Shown: positions 35,590 through 54,253 of the stretch, piece after piece
Layout: each line of letters starts with the position of its first letter
How positions within the stretch are numbered: the stretch's first letter is position 1
NCBI GenBank assembly: GCA_964602665.1
Contig: CAZRRH010000002.1
Location: 62,171-126,170, forward strand
Length of the DNA stretch: 64,000 nucleotides
Reading direction: 5' to 3'
Origin: an uncultured Candidatus Saccharibacteria bacterium
GTDB lineage: Bacteria > Patescibacteriota > Dojkabacteria > SC72 > WJKH01
Notes under the pieces: generated by a model
The model's input: the letters and a program-made list of their open reading frames with translations, nothing else
The model's database searches: none
What the model was told of the DNA's origin: nothing
Made by a program: the position numbers and the translations under genes

Positions 35590-35680
35590 CAATTCAAAAT
35601 TCAAAATTTAGAATTTAAAATTACAAATTGTAAATCCTTTGCCTTTAATTCAAAATTTAAACTTTAGAATTTAAAATTGT
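35590..35680. repeat. A/T-rich repeat array (TTCAAAATT / TTTAGAATTTAAAATT units) overlapping the 3' end of the ABC ATPase gene
   Basis: The sequence is ATTCAAAATTCAAAATTTAGAATTTAAAATT...TTCAAAATTTAAACTTTAGAATTTAAAATTG. This is the reverse-complement orientation of the 13489 unit. The last six codons and the stop of the 35657..36463 gene lie inside it. Confidence 0.7.
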
Positions 35681-36463
35681 TCTGTATTTCTTCACCACCT
35701 CTTTTGGTGTACCATCTATTGCAACTTGTCCTTCATTGATAAGAATTGCTCTAGTGCAGAATTTCTCGACTAGCTCTAAATCATGAGATACAAAAATTAC
35801 CGTTTTATCTTTTTTGCGGAAACTCTCAAATTCATTAAAACACTTCTTCTGAAAATTGGCGTCACCAACTGCTAATACCTCGTCCATTATGTAAATATCG
35901 GCGTATGAGCGGATAGCGATTGAGAAAGCGAGTCTGACCTGCATACCTGAGGAGAAATTTTTAAGCGGCATATCAAGGAACTCTTCAAGCTCCGAGAATG
36001 CGACGATACTGTTAAATTTATCCTCAACCTCTTTGCGCGACATGCCAAGTATTACACCATTTAGATAGATATTGTCACGAGCTGTTAATTCTGGGTTAAA
36101 GCCAACACCAAGCTCCAGAAAAGGCACCAAAATACCTCTTACTTTGATTTTACCTTGGTTTGGCAAGTAAATTCCTGACATTATCTTAAGAAGGGTCGAT
36201 TTGCCTGATCCGTTATTTCCAAGTATTCCAACAAATTCGCCTTTTTCGACCTTAAAAGAGACATTTTTTAAAACTTCGAGTTTTCTTTTGCCATCGTTGC
36301 TAATCCATTTGTGCGGTTTTGCGAGTCTTTGGATTAGGGTGTCTGTTTTCTCTGTTGGTATGTTAAAGTGTTTACTTACATCTGACACGATAAGTGAGTA
36401 ATCATGTTCTTGTACGATTTTTTTTTGCTTGGTTTTTGCCATATTTTTAAAAAAATTCTGCAA
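35657..36463 (-). CDS. polysaccharide/teichoic-acid ABC exporter ATP-binding protein (Wzt/TagH-like)
   Basis: Walker A GILGNNGSGKSTLLK, signature FSSGMQVRLAFSIA and Walker B IYIMDEVLAVGD. It is paired with an ABC-2 permease. Confidence 0.75.
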   Translation of the reverse strand: MQNFFKNMAKTKQKKIVQEHDYSLIVSDVSKHFNIPTEKTDTLIQRLAKPHKWISNDGKRKLEVLKNVSFKVEKGEFVGILGNNGSGKSTLLKIMSGIYLPNQGKIKVRGILVPFLELGVGFNPELTARDNIYLNGVILGMSRKEVEDKFNSIVAFSELEEFLDMPLKNFSSGMQVRLAFSIAIRSYADIYIMDEVLAVGDANFQKKCFNEFESFRKKDKTVIFVSHDLELVEKFCTRAILINEGQVAIDGTPKEVVKKYRTILNSKV

Positions 36464-37214
36464 TCCTCTTAACTGTGGGTTTAAAATAGTTATATCCCAT
36501 AGATGTAAATAAAAATATTATTGAGAAAAGGAGGAATATCGTTGCGAAATCGTTTATGCTTACTTTATCGGCCTCTAAAAGCCCAGTGCGGAAAGCTTGG
36601 AGGATATGTGTTAGTGGATTAAGTTTAATAATCCTAGCGAGATTGTCTGGAAGCTGATCAACGCTATAAAGAATCGGAGTACCCCAAAACACCATTTGTA
36701 AGCCAAGCTCTACTAGATGATGCAGGTCTTTCATAAGAATATTGCCAAGACTTGTGAAGAAAGAGATAGACAAAATAAGCAGGTATAGTGTAAGTAGAGA
36801 GAATATAACTAATAATAGACCCCAAAAAGAGAGCTTTATTCCTGCTGCTATAGCAAATACTAGAAGTATGCCAAGATTAACAAGAAAATTAATAAGTGCA
36901 ACGGCCGTCGAACTGAATATAACAACCTCTCTTGGGAAGTTGATTTTTAGTATTATGTGAGACTTGTTTTCTAGGCACTTAAGACCAAGAGTTATGCCAT
37001 CATTGAAGTAGTTTGATATCATGATACCAGAAAGTAGGAAGAGGCTATTTTGATCTCGTGTGCGAAATATAGATGTCCAAATAAAATATAGTATAGAGAA
37101 TAATGCTAGGGGTTTAATTACCATCCATAAGAAGCCAAGCGCGGAGTTTTTATATCTATGTTTGAAGTCTGTTTTGACAAATTCATTTAGTAGATCGATA
37201 TAGTTTTTAAACAT
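36447..37214 (-). CDS. ABC-2 type polysaccharide exporter permease (Wzm/TagG-like)
   Basis: 255 aa with six TM helices and ABC-2 family architecture. Upstream of and overlapping the ATPase gene. Confidence 0.7.
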   Translation of the reverse strand: MFKNYIDLLNEFVKTDFKHRYKNSALGFLWMVIKPLALFSILYFIWTSIFRTRDQNSLFLLSGIMISNYFNDGITLGLKCLENKSHIILKINFPREVVIFSSTAVALINFLVNLGILLVFAIAAGIKLSFWGLLLVIFSLLTLYLLILSISFFTSLGNILMKDLHHLVELGLQMVFWGTPILYSVDQLPDNLARIIKLNPLTHILQAFRTGLLEADKVSINDFATIFLLFSIIFLFTSMGYNYFKPTVKRIAEFF

Positions 37215-37292
37215 GGTTTGTATTGTATCATATGATCATGTTTTAGGCAATTATTTTTCTGTTTTTTTGGCTGTTGTTATTATGATGTCAGG

Positions 37293-37320: not shown

Positions 37321-37359
37321 CGAGAAGTAAAGTTTTAATTCAAGGTCTGATTTTAGTAT

Positions 37360-38391: not shown

Positions 38392-38411
38392 AATTAACAT
38401 TTAAAATATAA

Positions 38412-39428: not shown

Positions 39429-39443
39429 GTAAGGAATTTTTAT

Positions 39444-40382
39444 ATGAGAAAAAAAATAGACATAATATTACCTGTTCATAATGAAGAGGAAAATATCCCA
39501 TTAATTTATAAAGAAATTTTGGATCAAGTTAAATTTGTTAATAAAAAATATGATTTTGAGATTATATTTGTAAACGATGGAAGTACCGATAAAAGTACGG
39601 AAGAAATAAAAAAATTGGTAAAAAAGAATAGTAAGATCAAATATCTTGTTTTTTCAAGAAATTTTGGTCATCACGCAGCGTTAGAGGCTGGCATGAAATA
39701 TGCTAAAGGTAATGCGGTAATCATGATGGATGCGGATTTACAGCATCCACCTTCTAAAATTCTTGAAATGATTAAAAAATGGGAAGAAGGTTTTCAAATC
39801 GTTAATACGAAGAGAGAGAATACCGAGAAAATAGGTTTTTTGAAGAAAATAATGTCCGATGGTTTTTATTGGGTGATAAATAGAATATCCGATATCAAAA
39901 TTGAAAATGGATCAGCAGATTTTAGATTAATTGATCGAAAAGTTGTAGAAGTCTTGAATAAACTGCCTGAAAAAGAGAAATTTTATAGAGGTCTTATTAA
40001 CTGGGTGGGATTTAATACCGTTGTAATAAATTATAAAGTGAGGGCCAGAATACATGGTAAGCCATCATATTCTATGAAAAAAATGATAAATCTGGCAAGA
40101 ATTGGGATAACATCTTTCAGCATGTTACCAATGAAGATAATACTTTCTTTTGGTATTTTACTAAGCCTTTTTGGAGGGATATTCTTTGTAGTAACACTAA
40201 TAGGATATTTTTTCTGGGAGAATTTTTTTTCTGGATCTACAATACTGGGGTCATTTATTTTAATGAACACAGGATTTATTGTTATAATGCTTGGAATAAA
40301 TTCAACATATCTGCTAAAAGCATTAAAACAAGTTGAAAACAGACCAAGTTATATTATAATGGAAAGCAATATAAATGAATAA
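39444..40382 (+). CDS. GT2 polyprenyl-phosphate glycosyltransferase (GtrB/CsbB/DPM1-like) with C-terminal TM helices
   Basis: Motifs DIILPVHNEE, FVNDGSTD and MMDADLQH, with two C-terminal TM helices. Confidence 0.7.
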   Translation: MRKKIDIILPVHNEEENIPLIYKEILDQVKFVNKKYDFEIIFVNDGSTDKSTEEIKKLVKKNSKIKYLVFSRNFGHHAALEAGMKYAKGNAVIMMDADLQHPPSKILEMIKKWEEGFQIVNTKRENTEKIGFLKKIMSDGFYWVINRISDIKIENGSADFRLIDRKVVEVLNKLPEKEKFYRGLINWVGFNTVVINYKVRARIHGKPSYSMKKMINLARIGITSFSMLPMKIILSFGILLSLFGGIFFVVTLIGYFFWENFFSGSTILGSFILMNTGFIVIMLGINSTYLLKALKQVENRPSYIIMESNINE

Positions 40383-41559
40383 AATAGGTATAGTTTCAAC
40401 ATATCCATCAGAAGATTTTTCTGATATGAACGAAAGCGCAATGAGCTGGTACAGTAAAAAGCTTTTAGATACTGTTCCAAAAGAATTAAGAAAAAATTTT
40501 ATCGTTCTTGCGAATAAGGAAGAAAGCTTAACTTCTTATTATGATAATGAAGTAAAAATAGATAGGTGTTGGAGTAGAAAGTCGTTTTTCTTCTTTATTG
40601 ATTTAATAAAAGAAATTAAGAGAGAGAAAATAAAAACAGTTCATGTCCAGCATGAGTTTAATCTTTTTGGATCGTTAATATCAACACCTTTTGTTTTATT
40701 GACGCTCTTTTTTTTAAAACTTATCGGAACGAGAATTATCGTCACTTTTCATGGGGTAATAAGTAAGAAAATCATTAAAGATGATTTTAATAAAATAAAT
40801 CAAATTAGATACCCTAATTTTTTCTTGAAAATATGCTTCTTTATATTTTATTTTCTTTCAGGCATTTTTATAGATCAAATAATTGTTCATGAGGAAATAT
40901 TTAAAAAAATTTTGGTAAAAGAATATTTCTTTTCTAAAAAAAGAATTCAAATTATAAATATAGGAATAGAGAAAATACAGAAGATTGATAAAGAAGATCC
41001 GTTACTAAGAGAGTTAGGAGTGATAAAAGACAAAAAGAATCTCTTATATTTCGGCTTTCTTGCAGGATATAAAGGAATAGATCTTTTAATAGATAGCTTT
41101 AATTTGCTTAATCAAGATAAATATACACTTTTTATATGCGGTGGTAAGCCAAAAAGAGTTGAAGAAGATATAAAATACAATGCCTGGTACAATAGGGTTG
41201 AAGAAAAAATCAAGAAAAATAAAAACATTATTATGACAGGCTTTGTGCCTGAGAATGATATAATAAAATATTTCTCAGTAGCTGATTTGCTAATTATTCC
41301 TTATTTGCAAATGTTGTCTGCAAGTGGTCCAATGGCTTTGGCTATTAGTTATGGTTTGCCGTTCATTGCAAGTGAAGTGTTTTCTGAAATTTGGGGAGAA
41401 GAAATTTGTTTTAAACTAAACAAAAAAAGCTTAGCAGAAAAAATCGAATATTATTTCGAACACGGAAAAGATAATATAAATGATATCGTAATTAAAGCAA
41501 GAGAAGAAAGAGAATGGAAGAATTTATGGTTAAAATATCAACAAATTTATTTTAGATGA
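40375..41559 (+). CDS. GT-B (GT4-like) glycosyltransferase; module A gene 1
   Basis: The C-terminal half, FGFLAGYKGIDLLIDSF, fits Glycos_transf_1. It is a paralog of 54872..56041. Confidence 0.5.
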   Translation: MNKIGIVSTYPSEDFSDMNESAMSWYSKKLLDTVPKELRKNFIVLANKEESLTSYYDNEVKIDRCWSRKSFFFFIDLIKEIKREKIKTVHVQHEFNLFGSLISTPFVLLTLFFLKLIGTRIIVTFHGVISKKIIKDDFNKINQIRYPNFFLKICFFIFYFLSGIFIDQIIVHEEIFKKILVKEYFFSKKRIQIINIGIEKIQKIDKEDPLLRELGVIKDKKNLLYFGFLAGYKGIDLLIDSFNLLNQDKYTLFICGGKPKRVEEDIKYNAWYNRVEEKIKKNKNIIMTGFVPENDIIKYFSVADLLIIPYLQMLSASGPMALAISYGLPFIASEVFSEIWGEEICFKLNKKSLAEKIEYYFEHGKDNINDIVIKAREEREWKNLWLKYQQIYFR

Positions 41560-42737
41560 AGATTCTTTTAGGAGTTCCTGAGTATCCTCCTTACAATGTA
41601 GGGGGAGGGGGGATAGTGTTTAAAAACTTAGCGGAACAATATAGGCAGAAAGGGCATGAAGTGGTTGTAGTTTATGGCTTTTATCCAACCAAGTCTATTT
41701 TTGCTAGCGTTTTAGAGTTTAAAGATGAAAATGGGATTCATTTTTATCAGATACCTGAGATACCTTATCCCAAGAAATTGCCTTTTTTAAGAACAGTTAT
41801 GCCACCAAATTTATCCGGATTTATAGCCATGTGGAAGATTTTGGGCTTAGAGAAACCGGATGTTGCACATTTACATGGATATGGGCTATTTATTGTTAAT
41901 TTAATGTCCGTTATGTTAAAGTTAAAAAAAATTAAATATGTCTTAACGATACATGGGTATCCTGAAACGCAGAAAAAAAGTGCTCCTTTGGTAAAATTAA
42001 TTTGGGGAATTTTCGATAAAACTTTAAATTATTTCTTGATTAAAAATGCTTCAAAAATTACTGCGGTAAGTAAATTTATTTTAAATGATTCAAGAAATAA
42101 ATTTAAACAAAAATCCATAGTGATTTATAATGGGTTTGATTACTATTCTTACAATAAAGTAAATAAGAAGTATGACATAAGAAATAAACACAAACTTAAG
42201 AAAGACGATTTCATAATTCTCTCTATTGGGCGAATTACTGAAATGAAAGGATTTCAATTAGTTGTGAAAAAAATTCCGGATCTTATAAAAAATGGTTTTA
42301 AACCAATATATATGATAATGGGAGAAGATGACGGATACAAAGCTGAATTACAGAGAATAATTTCTAAAGAGAAACTTGTTGATAATGTTCTTTTTTTAGG
42401 TTACATGAATATTGATGATAAAAAACAGTATTTAGAGCAATGTGATATATTCGCTGCTACATCAATTTGGGAGCCATTTGGACTTATTGCTCTTGAAGCA
42501 ATTTTTTTTAATAAAATAATATGGACTACCAACATAGGAGGTTTGAAAGAGATTCTAAAAGAGTACAAGAAAAAAATATTATTTACTACCAAAACCAATG
42601 AATTTATGAATAAAATAAATTTAAGCAAAAAAATAAAGGATGATTTTAATTTAGATCAATATTGGTGGGATAATATAACTTTAACATATCTAGAAACTCT
42701 TAATGAAATCAAAGAAGATTTTAATAATAACAAATGA
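41556..42737 (+). CDS. GT4 glycosyltransferase; module A gene 2
   Basis: The N-terminus is MKILLGVPEYPPYNVGGGG. Other motifs are GRITEMKGFQLV and EPFGLIALEA. About 60% identical to 56016..57149. Confidence 0.7.
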   Translation: MKILLGVPEYPPYNVGGGGIVFKNLAEQYRQKGHEVVVVYGFYPTKSIFASVLEFKDENGIHFYQIPEIPYPKKLPFLRTVMPPNLSGFIAMWKILGLEKPDVAHLHGYGLFIVNLMSVMLKLKKIKYVLTIHGYPETQKKSAPLVKLIWGIFDKTLNYFLIKNASKITAVSKFILNDSRNKFKQKSIVIYNGFDYYSYNKVNKKYDIRNKHKLKKDDFIILSIGRITEMKGFQLVVKKIPDLIKNGFKPIYMIMGEDDGYKAELQRIISKEKLVDNVLFLGYMNIDDKKQYLEQCDIFAATSIWEPFGLIALEAIFFNKIIWTTNIGGLKEILKEYKKKILFTTKTNEFMNKINLSKKIKDDFNLDQYWWDNITLTYLETLNEIKEDFNNNK

Positions 42738-43518
42738 CTTGTATGCAAAAATAAAAGCATCAATTTGGTTAATAAGAAAAATCGGTTTGTTTAAATTCGT
42801 TATGATTTTTGGAGGAATATTGTTGCAAATAAAACGAAAGATCATTACAGTTTTTGATTTTCGCGGAGAAAAAATCTCTATGCAGATAGATTCCTTAAGA
42901 ACGGACATATCGATGTTAACAGAATGTTTTTATTTTGAATCATATTTACATGAAAAATTATCAATTGGGAAAAACGGTCTTATAATTGATGCTGGTGGTT
43001 ATAAGGGAGATAGTACAGTTTACTTATCAAAGATGTACCCTCTTGCAAGATTTGTTGTTTTAGAAGCTAACTCATCTCTTATTGATTATATAAAGACGAA
43101 TTTAGAATTAAATAAGATAAAAAGATACAAAATTATTAATAAGGCACTGTGTGACTTTAAGGGGACAATAAAATTTAAAATTAATGATAACCTTCAATAT
43201 TCAAGAGGAAGTAATGATGGAGAAACTTTTGTTGAGACAATTACTATAGAAGATATAAACAATCAGTTCGGCAGAATTTCTCTTTTAAAACTAGATATTG
43301 AGGGAGCCGAAGAAGATGTTTTAGTTCGTTCTAATTTGTCAAAAGTTGATGCAATAATAATGGAGGCTCACAACGATAGAATTAATCTATGGAGAATAAT
43401 AAAAAAGCTTAGGAAAGAGGGATTTAAAAAAATTAAGTTGAAGAATAGTAATCTGAAACTGCTGAATTTAGAAGATGAAAATGCTATTGTGTTTTTTGTA
43501 AAAGAGCATACAAAGTAA
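42703..43518 (+). CDS. FkbM-family SAM-dependent methyltransferase
   Basis: The pattern IIDAGGYKGDSTVYL...FVVLEANSSLIDYIKTNLELN...GTIKFKIND is FkbM-like. Confidence 0.55.
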   Translation: MKSKKILIITNDLYAKIKASIWLIRKIGLFKFVMIFGGILLQIKRKIITVFDFRGEKISMQIDSLRTDISMLTECFYFESYLHEKLSIGKNGLIIDAGGYKGDSTVYLSKMYPLARFVVLEANSSLIDYIKTNLELNKIKRYKIINKALCDFKGTIKFKINDNLQYSRGSNDGETFVETITIEDINNQFGRISLLKLDIEGAEEDVLVRSNLSKVDAIIMEAHNDRINLWRIIKKLRKEGFKKIKLKNSNLKLLNLEDENAIVFFVKEHTK

Positions 43519-43566
43519 AAACATTAAAATGGATAGTAGATATTAATTTATTAATTTTGTAATAAA

Positions 43567-44658
43567 ATGATAAAACAGAAAATGGCTGTTTGTATTACTG
43601 CATACGAGCCGGGCGGACAATCGGTAGTAGTGGAAGAAACGACTAAAAGATTTGCTAAATTTTATGATATTGATTTATACTGCGTTGGTGCGTCAAAACC
43701 TAAGCCTGCGTGGATAGACAATTTATACCTAGTTAAGCCGTGGGTACATAAGTATATTCCAATAATCAATAAGCAGTTTATAAATGATATAAAATCTCGT
43801 AATTATGCGCTTATACATTGTCACGATTCGCTTCCCTTCTTAAACGCATTCTACAAAAACGGTATAAAATATATGGTAACTTGTCTTGGTAACACAGATT
43901 GGCAGTATAGAGATGGATTAGTATCAAAAATAGATGGTATTGCGAGTTTACTATTTTATGGTAGAGGATACAAAGAAGCTGTTAAAGTTATATCTATAAG
44001 CAAATACTTGCAAGAATGGCTTAAAAAGACTTATAAAGTTGAATCACAAGTAATAGATCTTGGTGCCAATACAGACAGATTTCACCCTACGCAAAAAGCA
44101 AATTGGAGAGACAAAAGATTTATTTACTTTGGACAAATATCTTATCGCAAAGGCATTTTAGATCTTATTGAAATGTCTAGATTAATAAAAGATAAACATC
44201 CAGATTTTGTGCTTGAAATATATGGATTTGGCAAAGAAGAGTTTATGGAGAAAGTCCGAAATTTAATAAAAAAGCACAAACTAGAAAAAAATGTAAATTT
44301 AATCGGCTTTATAAAAGATGAGGAGCAAAATAGTAAGTATAACAGTGCTTTAGGTGTTATATCAGCTTCTTATTGGGAAGGATTTGGGTTGCCAATAATC
44401 GAGGCGTATAGATGTAACAGGCCAATCTTTGTTAGAAACAGAACCGCCATGAAAGATCTTGTAATTGATGAGAGATTTCGATTTGATGATGTTGATCAGC
44501 TTGTTGGGAAACTAGATTATTTTCTTTCAAATGAGAAAGAGTTTAGAGATATTGATTGGACAACTAAGCTTGATAGTGAAAAGTTCAGTTGGGATTTTAA
44601 CGCAAAAAAATACTTAAATTTATTTAAAAAAAAATATGATTATAGGGCAGAATTTTAA
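43567..44658 (+). CDS. GT4 glycosyltransferase; module A gene 3, with a 999-bp core identical to 57149..58240
   Basis: Motifs GQISYRKGILDLIE and EGFGLPIIEA. Bases 43603-44601 are identical to 57182-58180. Confidence 0.7.
   Translation: MIKQKMAVCITAYEPGGQSVVVEETTKRFAKFYDIDLYCVGASKPKPAWIDNLYLVKPWVHKYIPIINKQFINDIKSRNYALIHCHDSLPFLNAFYKNGIKYMVTCLGNTDWQYRDGLVSKIDGIASLLFYGRGYKEAVKVISISKYLQEWLKKTYKVESQVIDLGANTDRFHPTQKANWRDKRFIYFGQISYRKGILDLIEMSRLIKDKHPDFVLEIYGFGKEEFMEKVRNLIKKHKLEKNVNLIGFIKDEEQNSKYNSALGVISASYWEGFGLPIIEAYRCNRPIFVRNRTAMKDLVIDERFRFDDVDQLVGKLDYFLSNEKEFRDIDWTTKLDSEKFSWDFNAKKYLNLFKKKYDYRAEF
43603..44601 (+). repeat. 999-bp exact dispersed repeat, copy A (copy B is 57182-58180)
   Basis: The two tracts were compared directly. 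Identity starts and stops abruptly inside the two GT4 ORFs. Confidence 0.8.
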
Positions 44659-45343
44659 ACAAAATGTTACGACGGAAAAATCTCTTAGAGATGGGTATGA
44701 TAAAGTTTATGCTGAAGAAATAATGAAATTGGATGAGGATAAATTTTATAACTATATAGCAAAATTAGCAAAAAAATACTCAAATAACGGAAGTTTACTT
44801 GATATATCGTGCGGGTTAGGCCAATTGACAAACTTCTCTAGGGAACTTGGATTTGATGCTTATGGTATAGATATATCAAATGAAGCGATAAACAAAGCAA
44901 AAAGGAATTATCCTGATTGTAAATTTAATATTGGAAATTCGGAAAGATTACCATTTGAGAATGAAACGTTTGATATTGTTACAAATATGGGTTCTTTAGA
45001 ACATTATATTGATATGGAAAAGGCAATAAAAGAATCTGCTCGTGTTCTGAAGAAAAAGGGTTTTGCATTGTATATGTTGCCAAATCAATATTTTTTGCCA
45101 GATTTCTTCAAGGTTTTTTTACTTGGTGATCCAAATAATAAGCTTCAGCCAATTGAACGATTTGCCTCAAAAAATGAATGGAAGGGCTTACTTGAAAACA
45201 ACGGATTAAAAGTTGTTAAAATCTTAAGGTATAATCAAAAGTTTAGAGGCAAAGGATTTTTAGGTTTTATTTATAATGTGATCGAAAAGATAATTCCTTT
45301 TAATCTGTCTTGGCATTTTATATATATATGTAACCGAGCATAG
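44636..45343 (+). CDS. class I SAM-dependent methyltransferase (Methyltransf_11-like)
   Basis: SAM motif LLDISCGLGQL, then FDIVTNMGSLEH. Confidence 0.65.
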   Translation: MIIGQNFKQNVTTEKSLRDGYDKVYAEEIMKLDEDKFYNYIAKLAKKYSNNGSLLDISCGLGQLTNFSRELGFDAYGIDISNEAINKAKRNYPDCKFNIGNSERLPFENETFDIVTNMGSLEHYIDMEKAIKESARVLKKKGFALYMLPNQYFLPDFFKVFLLGDPNNKLQPIERFASKNEWKGLLENNGLKVVKILRYNQKFRGKGFLGFIYNVIEKIIPFNLSWHFIYICNRA

Positions 45344-45389
45344 GTTAAATGGTTATCATCTGTGAGGAACGAAGCAAATTGAAAGAATC

Positions 45390-47654
45390 ATGAAAAGATC
45401 TCTTTATATTATATATACGGTTTTTTTTATAATATTTTTTATCTTGCCATTGTTTTATCTTTTTTGGAAAAATAAGGGCTCTTCTATTCTTGGGCTTGAT
45501 TTGATAAATTATTATAATCCTGAAAAGAATCTCAAAGAAATTTTTTATATGTGGATTGAGAACGGCGGGAATGGATTTGGGTTTTATTTACCTATAAGAA
45601 TATTTGAAATTTTGAATGTCTCGATAAGCGTTTTTTTAAAGAAGTTGGGGGTTTCATTTAATGCTTGGTATAAAATATATTATTTTTTATCATTGATAAT
45701 TGGATATATTGGAATTTTTAAGCTTCTTAGTATGTTTTATAGAACAAAGATCATGTCTATTAAATTATTACTCGTTTCATATATATATATATTAAATCCA
45801 TTTACTTTAATAATAATTTATAACCCCGTTCCTTACTTTATAAATTTTATGGCTTTAACTCCATGGATTGCCTTTTTTTATATTCGAATTATTCGTGATC
45901 CTAACAGTAAAAGCTTATTATTGTTTTTAGCACTTAGTATTTTCTTAAATGTGGCATTTGCAAATTTAGCCTTCTTGGCTACATTAGTAATTCTCTTATT
46001 GATAATTAGCGTATTAGAAATAAAGAATATTTATAAAAATAGGAAAATACTTACTATTTATTTAATTATAATTTTTCTATTCAACTCATATTGGACTTTG
46101 AACTTAGGTCATTTTTATATTTTTAATAGAACAGACTTATTTGAAAGTGAGATAAACATTATTAAAACGGTCTTTGATATTGAGTCGATAAGTAAGTATG
46201 CTAAACTATCTAATATTTATCGTGGAATCGGAGGTTGGGATTTTTTTAATTCTCCTTTTGGTAAGCCATCGATAAGCTTCTCCTCGTTTTATAAGCAAGT
46301 TGTGCCAAGTATTTTGTTGTTTTTAAATCTGGTGCCTTTTCTAATGATTATTATTGACAAGAAGCATCAAGGTAGAAAAAGCATAATCATGGGTTCGTAC
46401 TTGCTAATAATATTTATGATATCTTATGGATTAGATAGTCTATGGTTTAAATCTGGAATTGTTAAGTCTGGTTTATATATGTTTAGAGATACTTTTAGTA
46501 AATTTGGAATGCTAATTCCATTTTTAATGACTATTTCTTGGTGTGAAACGATTAAGAGTAGCGGAAAAACAGCAATTTTTTTTCTTAGCCTTGCCATGCT
46601 TATAAATTCATATCCTCATTTAACAGGACAATTTATTAATAACGACTATTACTCTAATTATCCAAATGAATATAAGATTATTGGCAAAATAATCGATGAA
46701 GATTTTTCGTCAAATAGAGCTCTAAAGGTTCCAATCCCGACTTTTATTGCCATAGGAGAGAAAAATGATACATTGGCATGGGATTATTGGGGACCAGCTT
46801 TTTTATATGAGTTCACTGAAAAAAGGACGATAGAGATTCCTTCAAGAGCTGTTAATCGTTACTCAGATAAATACATGGAGAATTTCGTTGAAAATATAAA
46901 TGAAGAATATTTTTGTGAAAACTTAGATGAGATAAACATAAAACATATTCTTTTCAATAATAATTATTATGACTATTTATCTCCGAATGATAATGAAAAG
47001 ATTAAAGATAAATATTTTAAGATAGTAAATTCTTGTCAAAAGCTGGAACTTGTTTATGAAAGTAATGGTTATTACCTTTTCATAAACAAGGATGATTTAA
47101 GAGCAATTATTGATGGGAAAAACTTGTCTTTCCATAAAAATAATCCTACAAAATATAGTTTAAAAGTAGATAAAATAAAAGATAAGTTAAAGATAAACTT
47201 TTATGATTCATTTGATTATAATTGGCAATTGTATTTAAAAAGTAATAAAGAGTTTGCATCTGAAATGTTTTTAAATGCAGAAAAAAAACATATTGGCAAT
47301 TCAATAGAATATATTTCTAAAGATAAATTTGCTTTTAAGCTTACTGATCTCTCATACCTTTGGCGTAAGCCAATATTTGAAGATACGCATGAACTAGTAT
47401 ATGACTATGCAAACGGGTGGACAATAGATCCTGAGTACATAAAAGCAAACTATCCACCAGAATATTACCACGAGAACCCAGATGGCTCAATAGACATACA
47501 GTTGACCCTGTACTTTAAACCCCAGTCATACTTTTATCTTGGCATAATAATCTCCGTCACGACATTTACAGGATGTATAATATACCTAATAATAGACACA
47601 ATTAAAACTAAACGGCGCAAAAAAGATACAAATGAACCTCAAAACAAAAAGTAA
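45390..47654 (+). CDS. YfhO-like GT-C fold membrane glycosyltransferase (N-terminal polytopic domain, C-terminal extracytoplasmic domain, terminal TM)
   Basis: 754 aa with about 12 N-terminal TM helices, a roughly 300-aa soluble C-terminal domain and a final TM helix. It has the same architecture and C-terminal motif (GWxIDP...LTLYFxPQ) as its neighbour at 47632. Confidence 0.45.
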   Translation: MKRSLYIIYTVFFIIFFILPLFYLFWKNKGSSILGLDLINYYNPEKNLKEIFYMWIENGGNGFGFYLPIRIFEILNVSISVFLKKLGVSFNAWYKIYYFLSLIIGYIGIFKLLSMFYRTKIMSIKLLLVSYIYILNPFTLIIIYNPVPYFINFMALTPWIAFFYIRIIRDPNSKSLLLFLALSIFLNVAFANLAFLATLVILLLIISVLEIKNIYKNRKILTIYLIIIFLFNSYWTLNLGHFYIFNRTDLFESEINIIKTVFDIESISKYAKLSNIYRGIGGWDFFNSPFGKPSISFSSFYKQVVPSILLFLNLVPFLMIIIDKKHQGRKSIIMGSYLLIIFMISYGLDSLWFKSGIVKSGLYMFRDTFSKFGMLIPFLMTISWCETIKSSGKTAIFFLSLAMLINSYPHLTGQFINNDYYSNYPNEYKIIGKIIDEDFSSNRALKVPIPTFIAIGEKNDTLAWDYWGPAFLYEFTEKRTIEIPSRAVNRYSDKYMENFVENINEEYFCENLDEINIKHILFNNNYYDYLSPNDNEKIKDKYFKIVNSCQKLELVYESNGYYLFINKDDLRAIIDGKNLSFHKNNPTKYSLKVDKIKDKLKINFYDSFDYNWQLYLKSNKEFASEMFLNAEKKHIGNSIEYISKDKFAFKLTDLSYLWRKPIFEDTHELVYDYANGWTIDPEYIKANYPPEYYHENPDGSIDIQLTLYFKPQSYFYLGIIISVTTFTGCIIYLIIDTIKTKRRKKDTNEPQNKK

Positions 47655-49902
47655 AAAAACATATACCACAATAATTCTTATCCTACTAATCATCCTCTCC
47701 ATCCTCAACCTTCTCCCACTTAACCACATATATTCTCAATATGACATCGCACAGCAAATTGTTCCACGCCAGATCTTAGAGCAAATATACCTGTGGTCAC
47801 AAAGAGATCTAGGTGCAATGGCAACATCTTACTCCTCACTCCAATACTATCTTCCTCTCACAATCATCCCTACCACGCTCCACACAGCATACTATTACCT
47901 CATATTCCTCATCCCAACATACCTTGGCATAACATACTACCTATCCCAAAATAAAACGCAAAAATTAAAAAACAAAACTTACCTGCTCTCTCTAGTCTAT
48001 ACCATCTCCTTCTTCCCAGTATACTCATTCTTCTATCAGGGAGGACATTTCCCATTTCATAACCTATACTCACTATTTCCACCAATATTCATCCTATACT
48101 ACTTATACATAAGCAAAACAGAAAAAGAGGAGGCAAAAAGCTATCAATTTAAAATTCAAAACTTAAAATTTAAAATTGATAATAATTTATTAATCCTCCT
48201 TGCCATTCTTTTTCTAACTAACATAGTCAACTCCAATATCCCGTATTTTTTCTCGCTTAACCTAGTTTTAATACTAATTGCAGTAGTTAATTACATCATC
48301 CTAAAATCACGCAAAGCGGTTCGTACAATACCTTACTTGTTCAAAATAGCTAAATTTTACATACTATATTTCTTAATTACCGTTTGGAGCACAGTGCCAC
48401 AAATAATACAGCATTTAAACACATATTCATCGTTTATGAGACAGCAAGAGCACTTTCCCATAGACCAATGGCTGTTTTGGCAGTCAATGAATTTCACAGA
48501 GAGCTTGACGATGTTTTGGGAGACTCGCAGATACCTGGATCAGATACCTCTAACTGTATATGGCGCACTGGCCATTACATTTCTAGCCTTTGTCGTTTTA
48601 ATCGCAACAAAAAAGAGAACAGCGATACTTACGATACTTTGGGCAACATATATATTTGTCATATTTTTAGCCAATAAAGGGGCATACTGGCTTCCGCAGC
48701 GTTGGACACTTGCCATTTTCAAGCTTCCATTTTTGGCACCAATAAGATCATATGATAAGACGCTAATTTTTATGCCATTTCTTTTGTTTGCGATAATATC
48801 TTACTATATCCTGACTGATTACGAGAAAAACAAGAGATTAAAGCAAGTCATGCTTGCAGTACTATGCATCTCACAGATAATCGCCTCATATCCACTATGG
48901 AGTGGCCAGTTAGTCACAAAGTACTCACAACAGCATGCTAAAGGTGAGGATTACACAACTGCAGAGTATTCGCCCGTTGTACAAATCCCACAAGATTATT
49001 ATGATGTAGCACAAATATTAAATGCCAAGTATGATAATGGTAGAAATCAATTCCGTGTTATGCGCTTGCCATATTCTGTAGTAAACTCGGCGGGTTGGGC
49101 TAACTACCCTAAGTGGAAAGTCAACAGCGCTGATCCTACAATACAGCTATTTGATATGCCTTCCGTTCAGCCACAGTCCTTTCCTGATGAAGCTTTTGGT
49201 TTGTGGAATTGGGGATTGGAGTGGAATGAGGATGATAAATCGCAGAGCATGTGGCTTCTTAATTTTATGACATTTACTAATAGTCGATATATTATTTATC
49301 ATAAAGATGTTAAGCCGGAGTTTATTGCTGATACGATTGACAAGATAAACTACTACAAAGAGCAGGGGTTGATAACGCAGATTTATAGTGGTGAGTATAT
49401 TGACGCTTATGAATTATCTCGGATTTACATTGGCGATCATTTTTATATCGCTGATAAAATCGAGTATTTTAGTGGCGACTACGATAATTATGCAAGCCGG
49501 CTTTACAATTTGAATGCTAACTCGGTTTTTATACATAGCGATAGAATTACACAAGAACAGTTAGTTTCGCTATATAATATTAAAAAATCAGATGCACAAA
49601 TAAGCTATGAGTATATTAGCCCGATAAAATATAAAATAACCGTAAAAAATGCGACAGAGCCGTTCGTTTTGGTTATGCGAGAGGGTTATCACAAAGGCTG
49701 GAGGCTTACTGGTGCAAGCTGTGATCATATATTTGCAAATGGTTTTGCTAATGGATGGATAATTGATCCTGGTGATAGCGATGAGCTTGACTTAACTCTC
49801 TATTTTATACCGCAAACATTATACTGGGTTACTTTTGCTATATCCTCTTTGACTTTTTTATGGGTTTTATATATGATAATCATGATTAAAAAAAAGAAAT
49901 GA
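47632..49902 (+). CDS. YfhO-like GT-C fold membrane glycosyltransferase, tandem paralog
   Basis: 756 aa with the same topology as 45390..47654. Its 5' third has unusual G-depleted codons, and an in-frame repeat-family copy lies at 48156-48187. Confidence 0.45.
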   Translation: MNLKTKSKKTYTTIILILLIILSILNLLPLNHIYSQYDIAQQIVPRQILEQIYLWSQRDLGAMATSYSSLQYYLPLTIIPTTLHTAYYYLIFLIPTYLGITYYLSQNKTQKLKNKTYLLSLVYTISFFPVYSFFYQGGHFPFHNLYSLFPPIFILYYLYISKTEKEEAKSYQFKIQNLKFKIDNNLLILLAILFLTNIVNSNIPYFFSLNLVLILIAVVNYIILKSRKAVRTIPYLFKIAKFYILYFLITVWSTVPQIIQHLNTYSSFMRQQEHFPIDQWLFWQSMNFTESLTMFWETRRYLDQIPLTVYGALAITFLAFVVLIATKKRTAILTILWATYIFVIFLANKGAYWLPQRWTLAIFKLPFLAPIRSYDKTLIFMPFLLFAIISYYILTDYEKNKRLKQVMLAVLCISQIIASYPLWSGQLVTKYSQQHAKGEDYTTAEYSPVVQIPQDYYDVAQILNAKYDNGRNQFRVMRLPYSVVNSAGWANYPKWKVNSADPTIQLFDMPSVQPQSFPDEAFGLWNWGLEWNEDDKSQSMWLLNFMTFTNSRYIIYHKDVKPEFIADTIDKINYYKEQGLITQIYSGEYIDAYELSRIYIGDHFYIADKIEYFSGDYDNYASRLYNLNANSVFIHSDRITQEQLVSLYNIKKSDAQISYEYISPIKYKITVKNATEPFVLVMREGYHKGWRLTGASCDHIFANGFANGWIIDPGDSDELDLTLYFIPQTLYWVTFAISSLTFLWVLYMIIMIKKKK
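48156..48187. repeat. in-frame copy of the A/T-rich repeat family inside the 47632 CDS (AATTTAAAATTCAAAACTTAAAATTTAAAATTG)
   Basis: It encodes YQFKIQNLKFKIDNNL within the ORF. The motif matches the arrays at 35590-35680. Confidence 0.5.
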
Positions 49903-52049
49903 AAAAAAAGATACTACTAACAGTCCTTGTTACAAGCGCTATATCAGCACTCCTTCTAGCTTTGTCATCGTATATGAGCAAAGACTTGCAGGTCAAGCCA
50001 ATTGATTCGCTCGATCAGCTGTATTTATCTAAGTATATTTCTCAAGGTAGTGCAGGACTAAGTGTGTCGACTACAGATCAAAACGCAGATAAACTTGTCC
50101 CATACACCAAGGAGTCTTATGTATCAGCACAAACCGCACAAAACACTCCTTATTCTAATTATAAATATGAGGGCGCGTATTTACCAAAAGAATCGTATTA
50201 TAAAAGGTTAGATTTCTCAGAGTATTATGGCCTTAAAACGGTTATATCCCTTTGTAAAGACGAGTATTTTTACACATCAGAGGTTGGAGAGGAATTTATT
50301 ACTCACAATCAGTCAAGAGATCATGAATATCTTCTTAACCGCAAATTAAGCGATATTGCAAAATGCAATGTCTCGGTACTTAAGTTTGATGATACAAATC
50401 TACTTCAAAATCTCCAAACCAGTAAAGATTTTCCTGCTGTTTTAAGTGATCACAGACTGGCACTCTCAAGCGAGAGAAGTTACACTATTGATGAGAATGG
50501 GCAAGCAGGTATATTGATAGAAGTTAAGGAAAAACCAGCATATTATGCTCAAAGATATCTTGCTACGATAAAACCATTTGACGATTATCTTCTTGAGTTT
50601 AAGTATCAAGCGCATGACACCCTAAATCTTCGTTATGGAGTTAGATTATTTACACAAAAGTATCTTGATAGACAAACCGCAATGGAGCAAGAAGATTATG
50701 ATCCTATTGCCTGGAGTGATATTGACAATGAGTACACTGAATACTATTTTGACATTGCAAATGAGCAGTCGCATTTATTACAGCAGGTCGTTTCGACAAA
50801 CTTAGAAGATGTCATCGGAGTAGAGGTGATATATTATGCTGATTCGTGTACAAATGCCAGATATTCTTTTGGGATGCCTTCTCTCTACTCTTTGGTTTCA
50901 CAAGATAGTATTGATGAATATAAACAGGAATACTCTTTGTTGGCTGAACTTGTAAAAGTAGATTTACCTGCTAAATTGCCTGTATCCGAATTGGAATCTC
51001 CGTTTTATATTCTCAATAAGTCTGTGCAGTCAGAAGATGGCATATATACTACAGATGTCTACATAGCTAGTAATGACTATGCTCTGTATTTACTTGAGTT
51101 TGATGGCAAAGCATATACTATTACTGGTGAATTTGGCGAAATGGTGGTTGAAGATTATGATTGTGGTAAGGTTGTTATTGGCGATATAGCACTTGGCAAG
51201 ATAATGAATTTATCATTAAAGAGCGATAAGCCGGTTGATAGCATATCTTTGGAAAAGGCTACCTTTTACGATCCTTCATATTCAGAAACGCTTTTCAAAC
51301 TTGATAAAACTCAGTTTACAAGTGGCGATTATAAGTTAGTTCTATTAGAGAAACCTTATTCTCTCAAATATTATATAGCGGATTCTGATTATTATCATTA
51401 TATGACAAATGGTAATCAGAACTTATTTCTAATAAATAGTGATATAACTATATACCCCATAGGGTATAAAACAGCCGAAAGTATTAGAATATTGGCCTTT
51501 TTGATTATACCCATAGGGGTATTTATTATGCTTGTTTATCTTAACCGGTCTAAAATCGTTGGAATCTATAAAAAGATTAATAAATCTTATATCTATATAA
51601 ACACGCTTTTTTCAAGGAAGATTAGTATTCCACTGCTTAAATTCGTTTTTGACTCAAAGGAGATAAAATATAAGCATATTTTTGATACCAAAAGCAAATT
51701 TTGGGGTGAAATTGACATGATAATTGAGAAGATTGTTACTGATGTTATTAACAAGCCACTTGGGCTGATTTTTATCGTTGCAGGATGTATTCCTTTGATA
51801 TTTGCCCTATCTATACCTCTTAAATCTATTGCTATTCTGATCGTTTTCGCAATTATGTTGATTTGGCTTCTTTACGGATGGGATAGTAGGGTTTTGGGTC
51901 TTGTAGCGTTGATTTTTTTGTGTGCAGTGCCTGTTTTGCTGATTCTTAAAAAAGATGGCTATGCTGAAGGTTTTGCCATTATGGTCTACTTTTTCCTTGT
52001 TGCTAATGTCGCCGTGCAGGTTAAAGAAGGCCTAGAGCATAAGCAGTAG
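49899..52049 (+). CDS. large membrane protein (N-terminal anchor, about 500-aa extracytoplasmic domain, C-terminal polytopic domain), unknown function
   Basis: 716 aa with N-terminal TM and signal and about six C-terminal TM helices. Composition resembles the higher-GC patch. Confidence 0.4.
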   Translation: MKKKILLTVLVTSAISALLLALSSYMSKDLQVKPIDSLDQLYLSKYISQGSAGLSVSTTDQNADKLVPYTKESYVSAQTAQNTPYSNYKYEGAYLPKESYYKRLDFSEYYGLKTVISLCKDEYFYTSEVGEEFITHNQSRDHEYLLNRKLSDIAKCNVSVLKFDDTNLLQNLQTSKDFPAVLSDHRLALSSERSYTIDENGQAGILIEVKEKPAYYAQRYLATIKPFDDYLLEFKYQAHDTLNLRYGVRLFTQKYLDRQTAMEQEDYDPIAWSDIDNEYTEYYFDIANEQSHLLQQVVSTNLEDVIGVEVIYYADSCTNARYSFGMPSLYSLVSQDSIDEYKQEYSLLAELVKVDLPAKLPVSELESPFYILNKSVQSEDGIYTTDVYIASNDYALYLLEFDGKAYTITGEFGEMVVEDYDCGKVVIGDIALGKIMNLSLKSDKPVDSISLEKATFYDPSYSETLFKLDKTQFTSGDYKLVLLEKPYSLKYYIADSDYYHYMTNGNQNLFLINSDITIYPIGYKTAESIRILAFLIIPIGVFIMLVYLNRSKIVGIYKKINKSYIYINTLFSRKISIPLLKFVFDSKEIKYKHIFDTKSKFWGEIDMIIEKIVTDVINKPLGLIFIVAGCIPLIFALSIPLKSIAILIVFAIMLIWLLYGWDSRVLGLVALIFLCAVPVLLILKKDGYAEGFAIMVYFFLVANVAVQVKEGLEHKQ

Positions 52050-52052
52050 TGA

Positions 52053-52337
52053 TTAATATATAGGTGAATGACAAATTTCCATGACTATTGTGTTATCATC
52101 TGTCGGGGGTGTAAATGTTATGGTATTTTTTTGGCCGTTTTTTCCAAATATAACGGAGAAGCCCTCTACATGGATAGTGAATGGAGTTAGTTCATCAGCT
52201 TGTATTTGGAGAGATGCTTTGGCGGGCTCGTAAATTCCTGTTGCTCCATTAAGATTATCTGTAGTTATTTTCCCTACGATATGGGATTGATTTAGAACTT
52301 CAGACGATCCTTTAGGTAGTCCATTAAACATTGTCAT
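52053..52337 (-). CDS. small hypothetical protein (higher-GC patch)
   Basis: 94 aa with no TM and atypical Gly/Thr/Pro-rich composition for this genome. It may be the 3' fragment of a split gene together with 52387..52734. Confidence 0.3.
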   Translation of the reverse strand: MTMFNGLPKGSSEVLNQSHIVGKITTDNLNGATGIYEPAKASLQIQADELTPFTIHVEGFSVIFGKNGQKNTITFTPPTDDNTIVMEICHSPIY

Positions 52338-52386
52338 ATTTTAATTATATCATAAGGCTGGCTGTATGTCAAGTGATTGCATTACT

Positions 52387-52734
52387 TCAATTAATATTTG
52401 AATCGCAAATATTTGTTAATGAGAACAATGGCGGCCCTTCTTGTGGACGAATACTTACTGTTGATGGTTCTTTAGCGTATGAAAAGGTCTCGCAAATGTA
52501 TCCGGCTAAGTCTAATGCTACTCCTCTTGCTGTTGTTGGACCAAGCGGCGTTAAGTATAGCTGTTGTAATTCTGAGTCAAAATAAGCGGCTACGGGAATT
52601 TCTTTAACAGTTGTTCCTGGGCCTTTTTCATTAGCACAAAGTTGTTGAAAACTAGCTGTAAAAAAGCCTACAGGTAAAACAACATTCCATGGTATATTTG
52701 ATTCAAATTTTGCCCTATTATTTCCGTCTTCCAT
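52387..52734 (-). CDS. small hypothetical protein (higher-GC patch)
   Basis: 115 aa, co-directional with and upstream of 52053..52337 in a different frame. No motif recognised. Confidence 0.3.
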   Translation of the reverse strand: MEDGNNRAKFESNIPWNVVLPVGFFTASFQQLCANEKGPGTTVKEIPVAAYFDSELQQLYLTPLGPTTARGVALDLAGYICETFSYAKEPSTVSIRPQEGPPLFSLTNICDSNIN

Positions 52735-52804
52735 GTTATCATTATATCATATCAAGGCCAAAAAGACAAGATATGTAATTAGGTAATAATAACATATTGT
52801 TAGG

Positions 52805-54253
52805 CTACTCTCTAGAGATAAACGCCTTAAAAATATAAGCAGAGTCGTCTTCAATGCAAACAGAAAAAATATTGTTGGAGAAGGCATCTTGGCAATCAGT
52901 AAATGGCTGATTAATGCTGTCATCTTGATTGCTTTCAAAGTTGTAAAATCTCAAAATAATGCTTGTAAGTTTATCGTTGGTATAGCTTTTGCTAACGCCC
53001 TTATCGGCAATAAATTCTATAACATCAGTAGTCTTATTGTAATCAAGCCTATATTTAGCTATCATCACTGAGCTATTTATGATAGATAAACCAATTGCAC
53101 AGACAATAACTAAATAGTAAATTTTCTTAAATCTCGCAATAACAAAGCTTAATATAGCAAAAACCATTACAGGAATAAAATATCTTCCAGGGTCAACGCT
53201 ATTATATAAATCAAAATATATCATATATATTGTCCCAAAGGTTAGAATTGACAGTGATGAAATTATGATAGTTAAGGCAGTTTTTTTGTCTTTTTTGAGG
53301 TTTTCGACAAGGCTAATGGCAAGAAGTACTGTTAGGATACCAAAAATTATAACATTGCTCAAATAGAAAGCGGTAAGAAGCCAACTTGGTACACTACCCA
53401 GTGTTGACAATTTATCAAGCGATGCAAACTCCCAAAAATACTCAAAACTTTGTTTTAATTGAGGTAAAAAGCGATCAAATCCGATAAATTTAAGTCTTAT
53501 ACTCTGACTTAGATCATTTGTACCTACATTTACATCTTGTACTGAGCCGTTTTTAGCAAACCAAGGAATATACCCTGCGATGCCAATCATTGTTGACAAT
53601 CCAAAGATCATAATATGCTTTATTTTAAACCAGTTTTTATATAGAAAGAGCAAGCAAAGTGATGGTAAAGCAAGAAATCCGGTTGGTTTTGTCATGAGCA
53701 TAAGCCAAATGATTAGTGCGAGCTTGATAAAAGATTTAGTATCTGGCTTAAAGCTATATACCACGCAAAGTGAAATAGAAAACAGCATCGCAAAAAGCAT
53801 GTCATTATGTATAGAAGCGCTCATTAAAATGCTCCAAGAAGTAAAAGAGGTTATCAAAATGGCAAATTTGCTTGCTTTATCGCTTATACCAATTAATCTT
53901 AAGAATTTATGCGAAAAATACGCCCAGCCCGTGAAAAAAAGCAGGTTAAGAAGTTTGATAAAAAAAGTGGCTGTAATAAATGGAAGTAAGCCCAGAAAAG
54001 GTGCTATTATAGCGATATAAAGTGGAGGATACCAAAAACTTAAATCAAGTTCTAGTAATTTGAAAGCAGATGGGATATAATTATCAATACCATCGGTAAA
54101 TAGCGTCGGTGGTGCTATAATAATTAAAATAAGGCGAAGAAGTAACGCAAGAAGAAAGCCGATTTTAAACCAATTCTTTTTTAGAAATATGCTAATATCT
54201 GTTATCACGCCAGTATATAAAGGAGAGAAGTTATTAGTACAGGATTTTACCAA
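52805..54253 (-). CDS. GT-C fold membrane glycosyltransferase (ArnT/PMT-like, polyprenyl-phosphate-sugar dependent)
   Basis: 482 aa with about 12 TM helices. The first loop resembles the PMT_2 pattern (YPPLYIAIIAPFLGLLPF). It lies divergent to a GtrB-like GT2. Its TTG start overlaps the neighbour's start, so the start is uncertain. Confidence 0.45.
   Translation of the reverse strand: MVKSCTNNFSPLYTGVITDISIFLKKNWFKIGFLLALLLRLILIIIAPPTLFTDGIDNYIPSAFKLLELDLSFWYPPLYIAIIAPFLGLLPFITATFFIKLLNLLFFTGWAYFSHKFLRLIGISDKASKFAILITSFTSWSILMSASIHNDMLFAMLFSISLCVVYSFKPDTKSFIKLALIIWLMLMTKPTGFLALPSLCLLFLYKNWFKIKHIMIFGLSTMIGIAGYIPWFAKNGSVQDVNVGTNDLSQSIRLKFIGFDRFLPQLKQSFEYFWEFASLDKLSTLGSVPSWLLTAFYLSNVIIFGILTVLLAISLVENLKKDKKTALTIIISSLSILTFGTIYMIYFDLYNSVDPGRYFIPVMVFAILSFVIARFKKIYYLVIVCAIGLSIINSSVMIAKYRLDYNKTTDVIEFIADKGVSKSYTNDKLTSIILRFYNFESNQDDSINQPFTDCQDAFSNNIFSVCIEDDSAYIFKAFISRE

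Follow-up and report, generated by a model that had tools for sequence, protein, structure and literature searches.

The window (the whole stretch of 64,000 nucleotides that was analysed) contains a locus that, judged by its gene content, is a large surface-glycan cluster of the ABC-transporter-dependent (Wzm/Wzt) type. Both parts of the transporter are encoded on the minus strand at 35657..37214, as an ABC-2 permease (PF01061, 36447-37214) and a TagH/Wzt-like ATPase (35657-36463). The ATPase matches NF010065 (1.5e-57, 195.5 bits against a cut-off of 538) and NF050108 (6.4e-57, 192.5 bits against 400); these NCBIfam matches, to teichoic-acid and galactan export ATPases, all lie under the curated equivalog cut-offs. 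The locus also holds GalE and a Gmd-like gene, and its methyltransferases could cap chains. Between strains it is mosaic, with patches of 10-20% divergence beside kilobases of identity.

Two collinear modules of three glycosyltransferases (GT4/GT4/GT4) are found on the plus strand. By sequence they are anciently diverged, and their third genes lie 13.6 kb apart. Module a consists of g1a (40375..41559), g2a (41556..42737) and g3a (43567..44658, 363 residues, PF00534/PF13439), with an FkbM-family methyltransferase (42703..43518, PF05050) between g2a and g3a. A class I SAM methyltransferase (MT; 44636..45343, PF08241) follows, the start of which overlaps the 3' end of g3a by 23 nt. Module b is formed by g1b (54872..56041), g2b (56016..57149) and, as its last gene, g3b (57149..58240, 363 residues); the g2b stop and the g3b start overlap (TAATG). 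The ORF map places the genes of both modules where the initial annotation had them. All six glycosyltransferases match the Pfam Glycos_transf_1/Glyco_transf_4 models. The scores of g2a, g2b, g3a and g3b are above both cut-offs (Glyco_transf_4 for the N-domain, Glycos_transf_1 for the C-domain), as are those of g1b, barely so for PF13439 (29.8 bits versus 28.5). The g1a protein exceeds the cut-off only for PF00534, its PF13439 match of 25.8 bits being below 28.5. For g1-g3 no NCBIfam equivalog model reached its cut-off. The E-x7-E motif, read directly from the gene-3 cluster alignment, is E271-GFGLPII-E279.

The first two gene pairs differ widely between the modules. The g1a and g1b products, which the initial annotation had called distantly related, share 29% identity (nucleotide identity 0.48), and synonymous divergence along this pair is high (dS about 2.2). 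For g2a and g2b protein identity is 54.5% and nucleotide identity 0.61, with synonymous sites saturated (pS 0.81); an earlier estimate for this pair was about 60%. The longest exact DNA runs common to the gene 1 or gene 2 pairs measure 11-14 nt, and g3b shares an exact run of at most 15 nt with its orthologs. Furthermore, g1a is nearer to gene 1 of other organisms (L089 and L090, 40-41%) than to g1b (29%). By these measures modules a and b are ancient paralogs, and the third genes have the diverged neighbours that are expected where ectopic conversion has acted.

The g3a and g3b proteins are 97% identical over 354 residues. Base-by-base comparison at an offset of 13579 finds that 43603-44601 equals 57182-58180 at 999 of 999 positions, with zero internal differences, as read from one public 143-kb contig in which polishing can have erased small differences between paralogs. 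The unbroken 999-bp match reported in the initial annotation is thereby reproduced. On the plus strand it covers codons Y13-N345 of g3a (43603..44601, the recipient tract in the reading given below) and codons Y12-N344 of g3b (57182..58180, the donor tract), giving 333 identical residues. Given the 61% DNA identity of gene 2 and its saturated synonymous sites, identity over such a length is far beyond what chance would produce. The two copies form direct repeats on either side of a 12.6-kb segment (44602..57181 on the ORF map; repeat spacing 13579), which contains MT, three large membrane ORFs, two small ORFs, a minus-strand membrane ORF, GT2b, g1b and g2b.

Outside the tract the ends of gene 3 had been described as completely different, which is not the case. 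At the 5' end 11 aligned codons are 73% identical in DNA and 7/11 identical in protein. The 18 codons that flank the tract at the 3' end are 46% identical in DNA; the first five remain recognisably homologous (A/S-K-K/R-Y-L) and only the last ~13 are unrelated. The tract thus begins and ends within the genes, its flanks on either side diverged yet homologous, as a conversion leaves it. The breakpoints lie within AVCIT-x-YEPGGQ and FSWDF, the two motifs best conserved in the family, so that it was presumably here that the original a and b sequences were most alike.

Comparison with other strains points to g3b as the source of the shared sequence. The gene-3 90% protein cluster holds 11 variants, ten of which have b-type ends, P0018 alone having a-type ends. 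The exact g3b protein occurs on 4 ENA contigs that cross g3b with both flanks, and in SPAdes contigs from other samples (L001-L004) g3b with b-type ends shows 0-2 mismatches, being 100% identical in L001, L003 and L004; in L091 the divergence is about 2%. The A346 variant of P0017 is a single SNP (GCT) that differs from the a-type codon GCA. In the 90% clusters g2b (P0042) and g3b have 11 members each, against 1-2 for g2a and MT: the g2a cluster numbers 2, drawn solely from NCBI and Logan, and the MT cluster holds only the exact sequence of MT itself. In these comparisons no strain but this one shows the a-type ends or the a-cluster genes. The GC content of the tract (0.330) is like that of the b neighbours (0.325-0.344) and unlike that of the a neighbours (0.27-0.30). 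Logan contigs L091 and L092 traverse all of g3b; L096, coming in from the downstream flank, extends unbroken over ~510 nt of the tract. Since such k=31 contigs pass uninterrupted through g3b, the other strains have no identical second copy of gene 3.

A gene 3 nevertheless belonged at the a position before the event, as suggested by the layout GT2-g1-g2-FkbM-g3-MT-large membrane ORF, which is conserved in other organisms (L089, L090, L093). The FkbM methyltransferase has the same position in L089 and L090, and the adjacency of g3 and MT is kept in L089 and L093/L094. Gene 3 of these a-type clusters is ~55% identical to that of the window; they are the only, distant, a-type clusters found, and an unconverted g3a from a close strain was not among the sequences compared. 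The a-type ends of g3a agree with the family consensus (CITAYEPGG; YLxxF). Taken as it stands, g3a is a chimera in which the body of g3b is enclosed by 12 N-terminal and 18 C-terminal codons native to g3a.

These observations are most probably explained by one recent, non-reciprocal homologous recombination, an ectopic gene conversion of g3a by g3b. The initial annotation had proposed recent gene conversion, and the sharp boundaries inside old paralogs uphold this. In this strain lineage 999 bp of g3b would have been copied over the matching part of g3a, which would have kept the first 12 and last 18 of its original codons, and with them its own translation start and the overlap with MT. Cluster membership and GC content indicate that b was donor and a recipient, a likely answer to the question of direction that had been raised earlier; the donor g3b is unchanged with respect to related strains, in keeping with a non-reciprocal transfer. 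The mechanism is presumably RecA-type, less surely so at the endpoints, since RecA recombination is normally inefficient between sequences of ~60% identity. The exchange may have been tolerated because gene 3 performs the same conserved step in both pathways, which by analogy with WbdC/WbdB versus WbdA of E. coli O8/O9a (see below) would be the step nearest the lipid primer. The conversion seems to have happened once, in a single strain lineage, and the 999-bp direct repeat that it left may now serve as a substrate for deletion or amplification of the 13.6-kb unit.

A bolder version would have module a, as a strain-specific unit, acquired horizontally and 'domesticated' by the resident primer-proximal glycosyltransferase, with the repeat as an on/off switch for the 13.6-kb unit. 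This is unlikely; if it were true, the overwritten gene 3 would let a foreign pathway start on the host's lipid-linked primer, and the switch would delete or amplify a unit carrying module b together with GT-C-like membrane proteins.

The converting DNA may also have come from outside the chromosome. The g3b DNA of a sibling cell could have recombined into the g3a locus or, in a variant, module a could be an island of recent acquisition that lost its own gene 3 to replacement, either as it arrived or later. An external donor of the same sequence did exist, since g3b is identical in L001, L003 and L004; mosaic recombination is abundant at the locus, and the a-cluster genes are seen in this strain only. 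However, the same chromosome carries the nearest possible donor, itself identical, at a distance of 13.6 kb. The sequence fits either route, and both give the same product, ectopic conversion of g3a by g3b sequence. Even taken together, import and its island variant are quite improbable.

A further alternative is an artefact of assembly, in which the diverged interior of g3a was mis-threaded with that of g3b at short shared islands or the two copies were homogenised by polishing. The perfection of the identity fits this, as does the position of both boundaries in conserved motifs, which might contain short shared islands. Three independent k=31 Logan contigs (read sets SRR12133403/4), 100% identical to the window, bear on the question, as they stop exactly 30 nt (k-1) inside the tract: L005 ends at 43632 (left junction of a), L006 begins at 44572 (right junction of a) and L095 ends at 58151 (right junction of b). 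They cover three of the four junctions, the left junction of b being the exception, and at each of these demonstrate that 31 nt or more are shared, rather than the full 999 bp. Islands of at least 31 nt at both ends would themselves need a recent exchange, because exact runs do not exceed 14 nt between the ancient paralogs here, or 15 nt between g3b and its orthologs. Neither is a separate g3-like fragment that could be the native interior of g3a found by protein search, each gene-3 match being either full-length with its own ends or b-type. Finally, the three junction contigs break at precisely k-1, and an assembler working on short reads would stop at such a repeat and not write it out twice. 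With the a-left, a-right and b-right junctions present in read-derived contigs, the collapsed repeat offered as an alternative in the initial annotation is very unlikely. The a-right contig is 11,773 nt long; from its start at 44572 its expected end is near 56344, in g2b before a polymorphic patch, which hints at several strains in the sample.

The suggestion of programmed phase or antigenic variation, with the gene-3 copies as a recombination cassette that repeatedly switches a surface glycan, draws on the nature of the locus, a surface-glycan cluster that is mosaic between strains, on the capacity of a 999-bp direct repeat to mediate deletion or amplification of the 13.6-kb unit, for which manB/cpsG offers a precedent (PMC13626634), and on the control of surface adhesins by gene conversion in Helicobacter pylori (PMC3960876). 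The converted body makes the two enzymes identical, however, so that conversion removes diversity rather than creating it; both copies are complete, full-length genes in operons and not silent cassettes, the repeats are direct and not inverted, and no identical second copy is seen in other strains. As no recombinase or invertase domain was recognised in the ORFs of 45390-54253 or in the minus-strand ORF downstream of g3b (58359-59687), and no a/b hybrid occurs among the 11 sequence variants of the gene-3 90% cluster, variation of this kind is scarcely credible.

Ectopic conversion of g3a by g3b stands as a clean natural case seen at a very early stage, when the 999 bp are still free of differences, and with donor and recipient assignable from metagenomic strain comparisons. 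By analogy, it would mean that otherwise incompatible modules of a glycan locus can exchange the enzyme that acts closest to the conserved start of the pathway, and the direct repeat would predispose the strain to losing or amplifying 13.6 kb of glycan genes. Chiefly the case serves to warn those who assemble and annotate genomes, and it adds modestly to what is known of how surface-glycan clusters evolve in uncultured lineages.

The event is ordinary recombination of a known kind and calls for no new mechanism. Intragenomic gene conversion between paralogs is known from tufA and tufB of Salmonella and E. coli, where it has long kept a pair of essential genes identical; the present case is one event in one strain. 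The tuf genes, and babA/babB and sabA/sabB/hopQ of H. pylori, resemble g3a/g3b in a non-reciprocal, RecA-type transfer between separate loci, and both the tuf and the H. pylori conversions yield chimeric genes with sharp identity boundaries, as found here. Chimeras of babB/A that arise from gene conversion between these paralogs have been described (PMC3960876). In H. pylori such events recur and alter the expression of adhesins, whereas a single event is detectable here, in cytoplasmic glycosyltransferase genes, with no sign of recurrence in the strains compared or of a phenotype.

The E. coli manB and cpsG genes, which flank the rfb O-antigen cluster, are likewise two highly similar sugar-pathway paralogs in direct orientation around glycan genes, and on repeated occasions recombination between them has removed 23 kb, leaving a chimeric gene behind (PMC13626634). 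There the stretch between two repeats is lost; the repeat here is newly formed, and no product of such a loss is seen. By analogy, a deletion of the manB/cpsG type is a likely future for the 999-bp repeat. In the E. coli O8 and O9a serotypes, whose glycosyltransferase modules also belong to an ABC-transporter-dependent pathway, the primer-proximal WbdC and WbdB have identical activities, and WbdA, only 16% identical, defines the serotype (PMC7685785). This gradient resembles that of gene 3 (identical), gene 2 (54%) and gene 1 (29%), as an analogy only that does not imply orthology: WbdA is multi-modular and g1 here a single-module GT4, and the Wbd sets belong to two serotypes whereas both sets here reside in one genome.

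The window carries two modules of three glycosyltransferase genes, and all six of these genes are GT4-type by Pfam. In module a, g1a (40375-41559) and g2a (41556-42737) are followed by an FkbM methyltransferase gene (42703-43518), which lies between g2a and g3a (43567-44658). Module b consists of g1b (54872-56041), g2b (56016-57149) and g3b (57149-58240). This ORF map agrees with the layout described in the initial annotation. Self-comparison at a constant offset of 13579 shows that 43603-44601 and 57182-58180 are identical over 999 bp with 0 internal mismatches, and a repeat finder gives the same pair; the tract, previously reported as perfect, is exact base by base with no scattered differences. 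The proteins P0014 (g3b) and P0018 (g3a called from Met6) are both found on one 143,317-bp NCBI contig, the source of the window. Runs of eight and nine A residues occur, respectively, at 57152-57159 (g3b codons 2-4) and at 44627-44635, in the 3' tail of g3a, immediately ahead of the start codon of the methyltransferase gene that follows. Runs of this kind are common in DNA of 33% G+C, approximately the composition of this organism.

The three pairs of paralogs differ greatly in their divergence. The g1a/g1b products share 29% identity (DNA identity 0.48, dS approximately 2.2), and those of g2a/g2b 54.5% (DNA identity 0.61) with a saturated pS of 0.81. The g3a and g3b proteins are 97% identical over 354 aa, with no synonymous divergence in the 999/999 identical tract. 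As the longest exact run is 11 nt between g1a and g1b and 14 nt between g2a and g2b, the run of 999 nt is not residual similarity. The sharp identity boundaries within the ORFs had been attributed to gene conversion, and this is the best explanation: a single recent ectopic conversion of g3a by g3b, within one strain lineage, is highly probable. Partial conversion within g2 was also considered and rejected, the identity in a sliding window being uniform (0.51-0.72) with no gradient towards g3.

The ends of gene 3 that flank the tract are not completely different, as had been claimed. At the N-terminus 7 of 11 aligned residues are identical (73% in DNA), and on the 3' side the first residues past the tract still align (A/S-K-K/R-Y-L), with only the last 13 or so codons unrelated. 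The ends of g3a carry the family-consensus features CITAYEPGG and YLxxF, for which g3b has its own variants (CITYYEPGG and YLDIIEE...); g3a is thus likely to be a chimera of its original ends and the g3b body. The g3b sequence would have overwritten the interior of g3a, leaving the recipient's own ends in place. Both breakpoints fall at codon boundaries inside the most conserved motifs of the gene-3 family; even distant orthologs are approximately 75-80% identical in DNA across the 5' motif, and the conservation of the 3' motif is seen at the protein level only. This location fits homology-dependent resolution, which would have taken place within the conserved motifs. Because g3a has kept its own start region, and its 3' end still overlaps the next gene, that of the methyltransferase, by 23 nt, the coupling of the operon has been preserved.

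Several observations indicate that g3b was probably the donor and g3a the recipient. Within the 90% protein cluster of g3 (n = 11), 10 members have b-type ends and P0018 alone has a-type ends. The 90% clusters of g2b and g3b each have 11 members, against 1 for the a-cluster methyltransferase and 2 for g2a, all of these a-cluster members coming from the NCBI contig or from same-strain Logan assemblies (k = 31, read-derived). With its own ends, g3b is identical in three other-sample contigs (L001, L003 and L004) and differs at 2 sites in L002 and 22 in L091, and elsewhere these contigs have patches that are 2-20% diverged from the window. Finally, the G+C of the tract (0.330) fits the b neighbours (0.325-0.344) better than the a neighbours (0.27-0.30). 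By the same allele comparison, the event would be later than the split of the window's g3b allele from that of L002. An exchange in the reverse direction in other strains, suspected from Ala346 in P0013 and P0017 as in g3a, was rejected: in L091 the residue is encoded by GCT, which differs from TCT by one SNP, and the a-type codon is GCA. Searches with g3a against GTDB representative genomes found no relative and those with the a-cluster methyltransferase against JGI metagenomes no match, and exact look-ups found neither g3a nor P0018 on record.

An assembly in which g3b sequence had been passed through the g3a locus would give the same picture, and a few true differences could have been lost in polishing, leaving perfect identity. 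Such mis-threading is very improbable. Three Logan contigs of SRR12133403/4, which match the window at 100% identity, reach exactly 30 nt (k-1) into the tract and no further: one that covers 35593-43632 at the left junction of the a copy, one that starts at 44572 at its right junction, and one that ends at 58151 at the right junction of the b copy. This is how a de Bruijn graph behaves at the edge of a true repeat. Taken strictly, these ends prove no more than the sharing of 31 nt or more at each of the three junctions. However, exact runs are no longer than 14 nt between the old paralogs and 15 nt between g3b and its orthologs, so that even this requires a recent exchange. The protein search found no fragment fit to be a separate native g3a interior, which also makes a mis-threaded path unlikely. 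In other strains, two k=31 contigs (L091 and L092) span the whole of g3b unbroken, a third crosses its right boundary and continues approximately 510 nt into the tract, and four SPAdes contigs also cross the gene, so these strains lack an identical second copy.

The further proposal of the initial annotation, a mechanism of phase or antigenic variation, is not supported. Among the variants only Ala346 in P0017 is suggestive, and it reflects a single SNP. The repeats are direct, both copies of gene 3 are complete genes in operons, and the conversion has made the two enzymes alike, reducing diversity. No recombinase was recognised among the ORFs of 45390-54253 or in the one that directly follows g3b, and no a/b hybrids occur among the known variants of the g3 cluster.

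Campbell-type integration as the source of the direct repeat was rejected, since both flank arrangements are native elsewhere: FkbM-g3-methyltransferase in three contigs of other organisms (L089, L090 and L093), and g2b-g3b-membrane ORF in other strains. The a-type order is GT2-g1-g2-FkbM-g3 in L090 and g2-FkbM-methyltransferase-g3-methyltransferase, then a large membrane ORF, in L089; L093 and L094 have g3 adjacent to the methyltransferase gene. Gene 3 would therefore have sat natively between FkbM and a methyltransferase before the conversion. The g3 products of these clusters are approximately 55% identical to that of the window. Their g1 products are closer to g1a (40-41%) than g1b is (29%), and g2a is equally far from g2b (54.5%) and from g2 of L089 (55%), so that the a/b split is no younger than the divergence of these organisms.

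By its gene content the region is a predicted large surface-glycan locus. On the minus strand, 35657-37214 encodes an ABC-2 permease together with a TagH/Wzt-like ATPase. The locus also has GalE, a GDP-mannose 4,6-dehydratase-like gene and a GT2 of PgfS/ArnC type with two membrane helices at its C-terminus, and then the two GT4 modules, two methyltransferases and further GT2 genes. Several of its large polytopic membrane proteins belong to no Pfam family. Within 37360-40382, GalE scores above cut-off (TIGR01179) and precedes the Gmd-like gene and the GT2, whose resemblance to the polyprenyl-phosphate sugar synthases PgfS and ArnC is below cut-offs. Five large membrane ORFs (754, 756, 716, 482 and 442 aa; 45390-52049, plus strand; 52805-54253 and 58359-59687, minus strand) have 6-9 predicted membrane helices and match no Pfam or NCBIfam family, the first having a non-significant GT-C_AftD trace (E = 0.037) and a 32%-identical counterpart at the same position in L089. 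They are candidates for so far undescribed enzymes of the glycan pathway, whether GT-C-like glycosyltransferases, polymerases or ligases. The GalE, Gmd-like and GT2 genes, taken with the GT-C-like ORFs, suggest an extracytoplasmic branch of glycosylation similar to the three-component systems described in PMC11127046. The GTDB species set includes nothing close to this lineage, and the window's own peptides are absent from it; the best GTDB matches to its formate-tetrahydrofolate ligase (54-62% identical) are spread over several candidate phyla (Atribacteria, Firestonebacteria, Omnitrophota and Elusimicrobia), and some relatives of g2, at 42-43% identity, carry the annotation WS6/Dojkabacteria.

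Between strains, divergence from L001-L004 across 52317-63865 is strongly patchy, with 29 mismatches in 55250-55500 and approximately 100 in 62000-63800 beside long identical blocks, and indicates that homologous recombination across the locus has probably been frequent. The 2.4 kb of 57003-59468 is identical to L001 and L004, with 1-4 mismatches to L002 and L003. The adjoining patch of approximately 260 bp (59469-59727), comprising the 5' end of the 442-aa membrane ORF and a divergent intergenic region, is only 84% identical to all five covering contigs (L001-L004 and L091). A second ectopic conversion here was rejected, no donor being found elsewhere in the window; the allele seems to have been imported, or the N-terminus and promoter to be hypervariable locally. 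Decay of GT2b/g1b and the 482-aa membrane ORF in other strains, suspected from differing gene calls, was likewise rejected: in L001 this region contains a scaffold gap of 100 N, and both L001 and L002 give intact translations of the ORFs.

The conversion of g3a adds one more example of a process that is already well known. In H. pylori gene conversion is well known as a regulator of surface proteins (PMC3960876); the features that make this a variation system, recurrence and a functional difference between the copies, are not seen here. Through the new 999-bp direct repeat, a 13.6-kb unit can now be deleted or amplified. Repeated recombination of this kind has involved manB/cpsG around the E. 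coli rfb cluster (PMC13626634). The present data contain no deletion or amplification product. In E. coli O8/O9a the primer-proximal adaptor is built by WbdC and WbdB, whose functions are the same in both serotypes, and WbdA, only 16% identical, defines the serotype (PMC7685785). The gradient of divergence in the two modules, greatest in g1 and least in g3, mirrors the Wbd case as an analogy rather than as membership, and we infer that the swap was tolerated because gene 3 may perform the same conserved step in both pathways.
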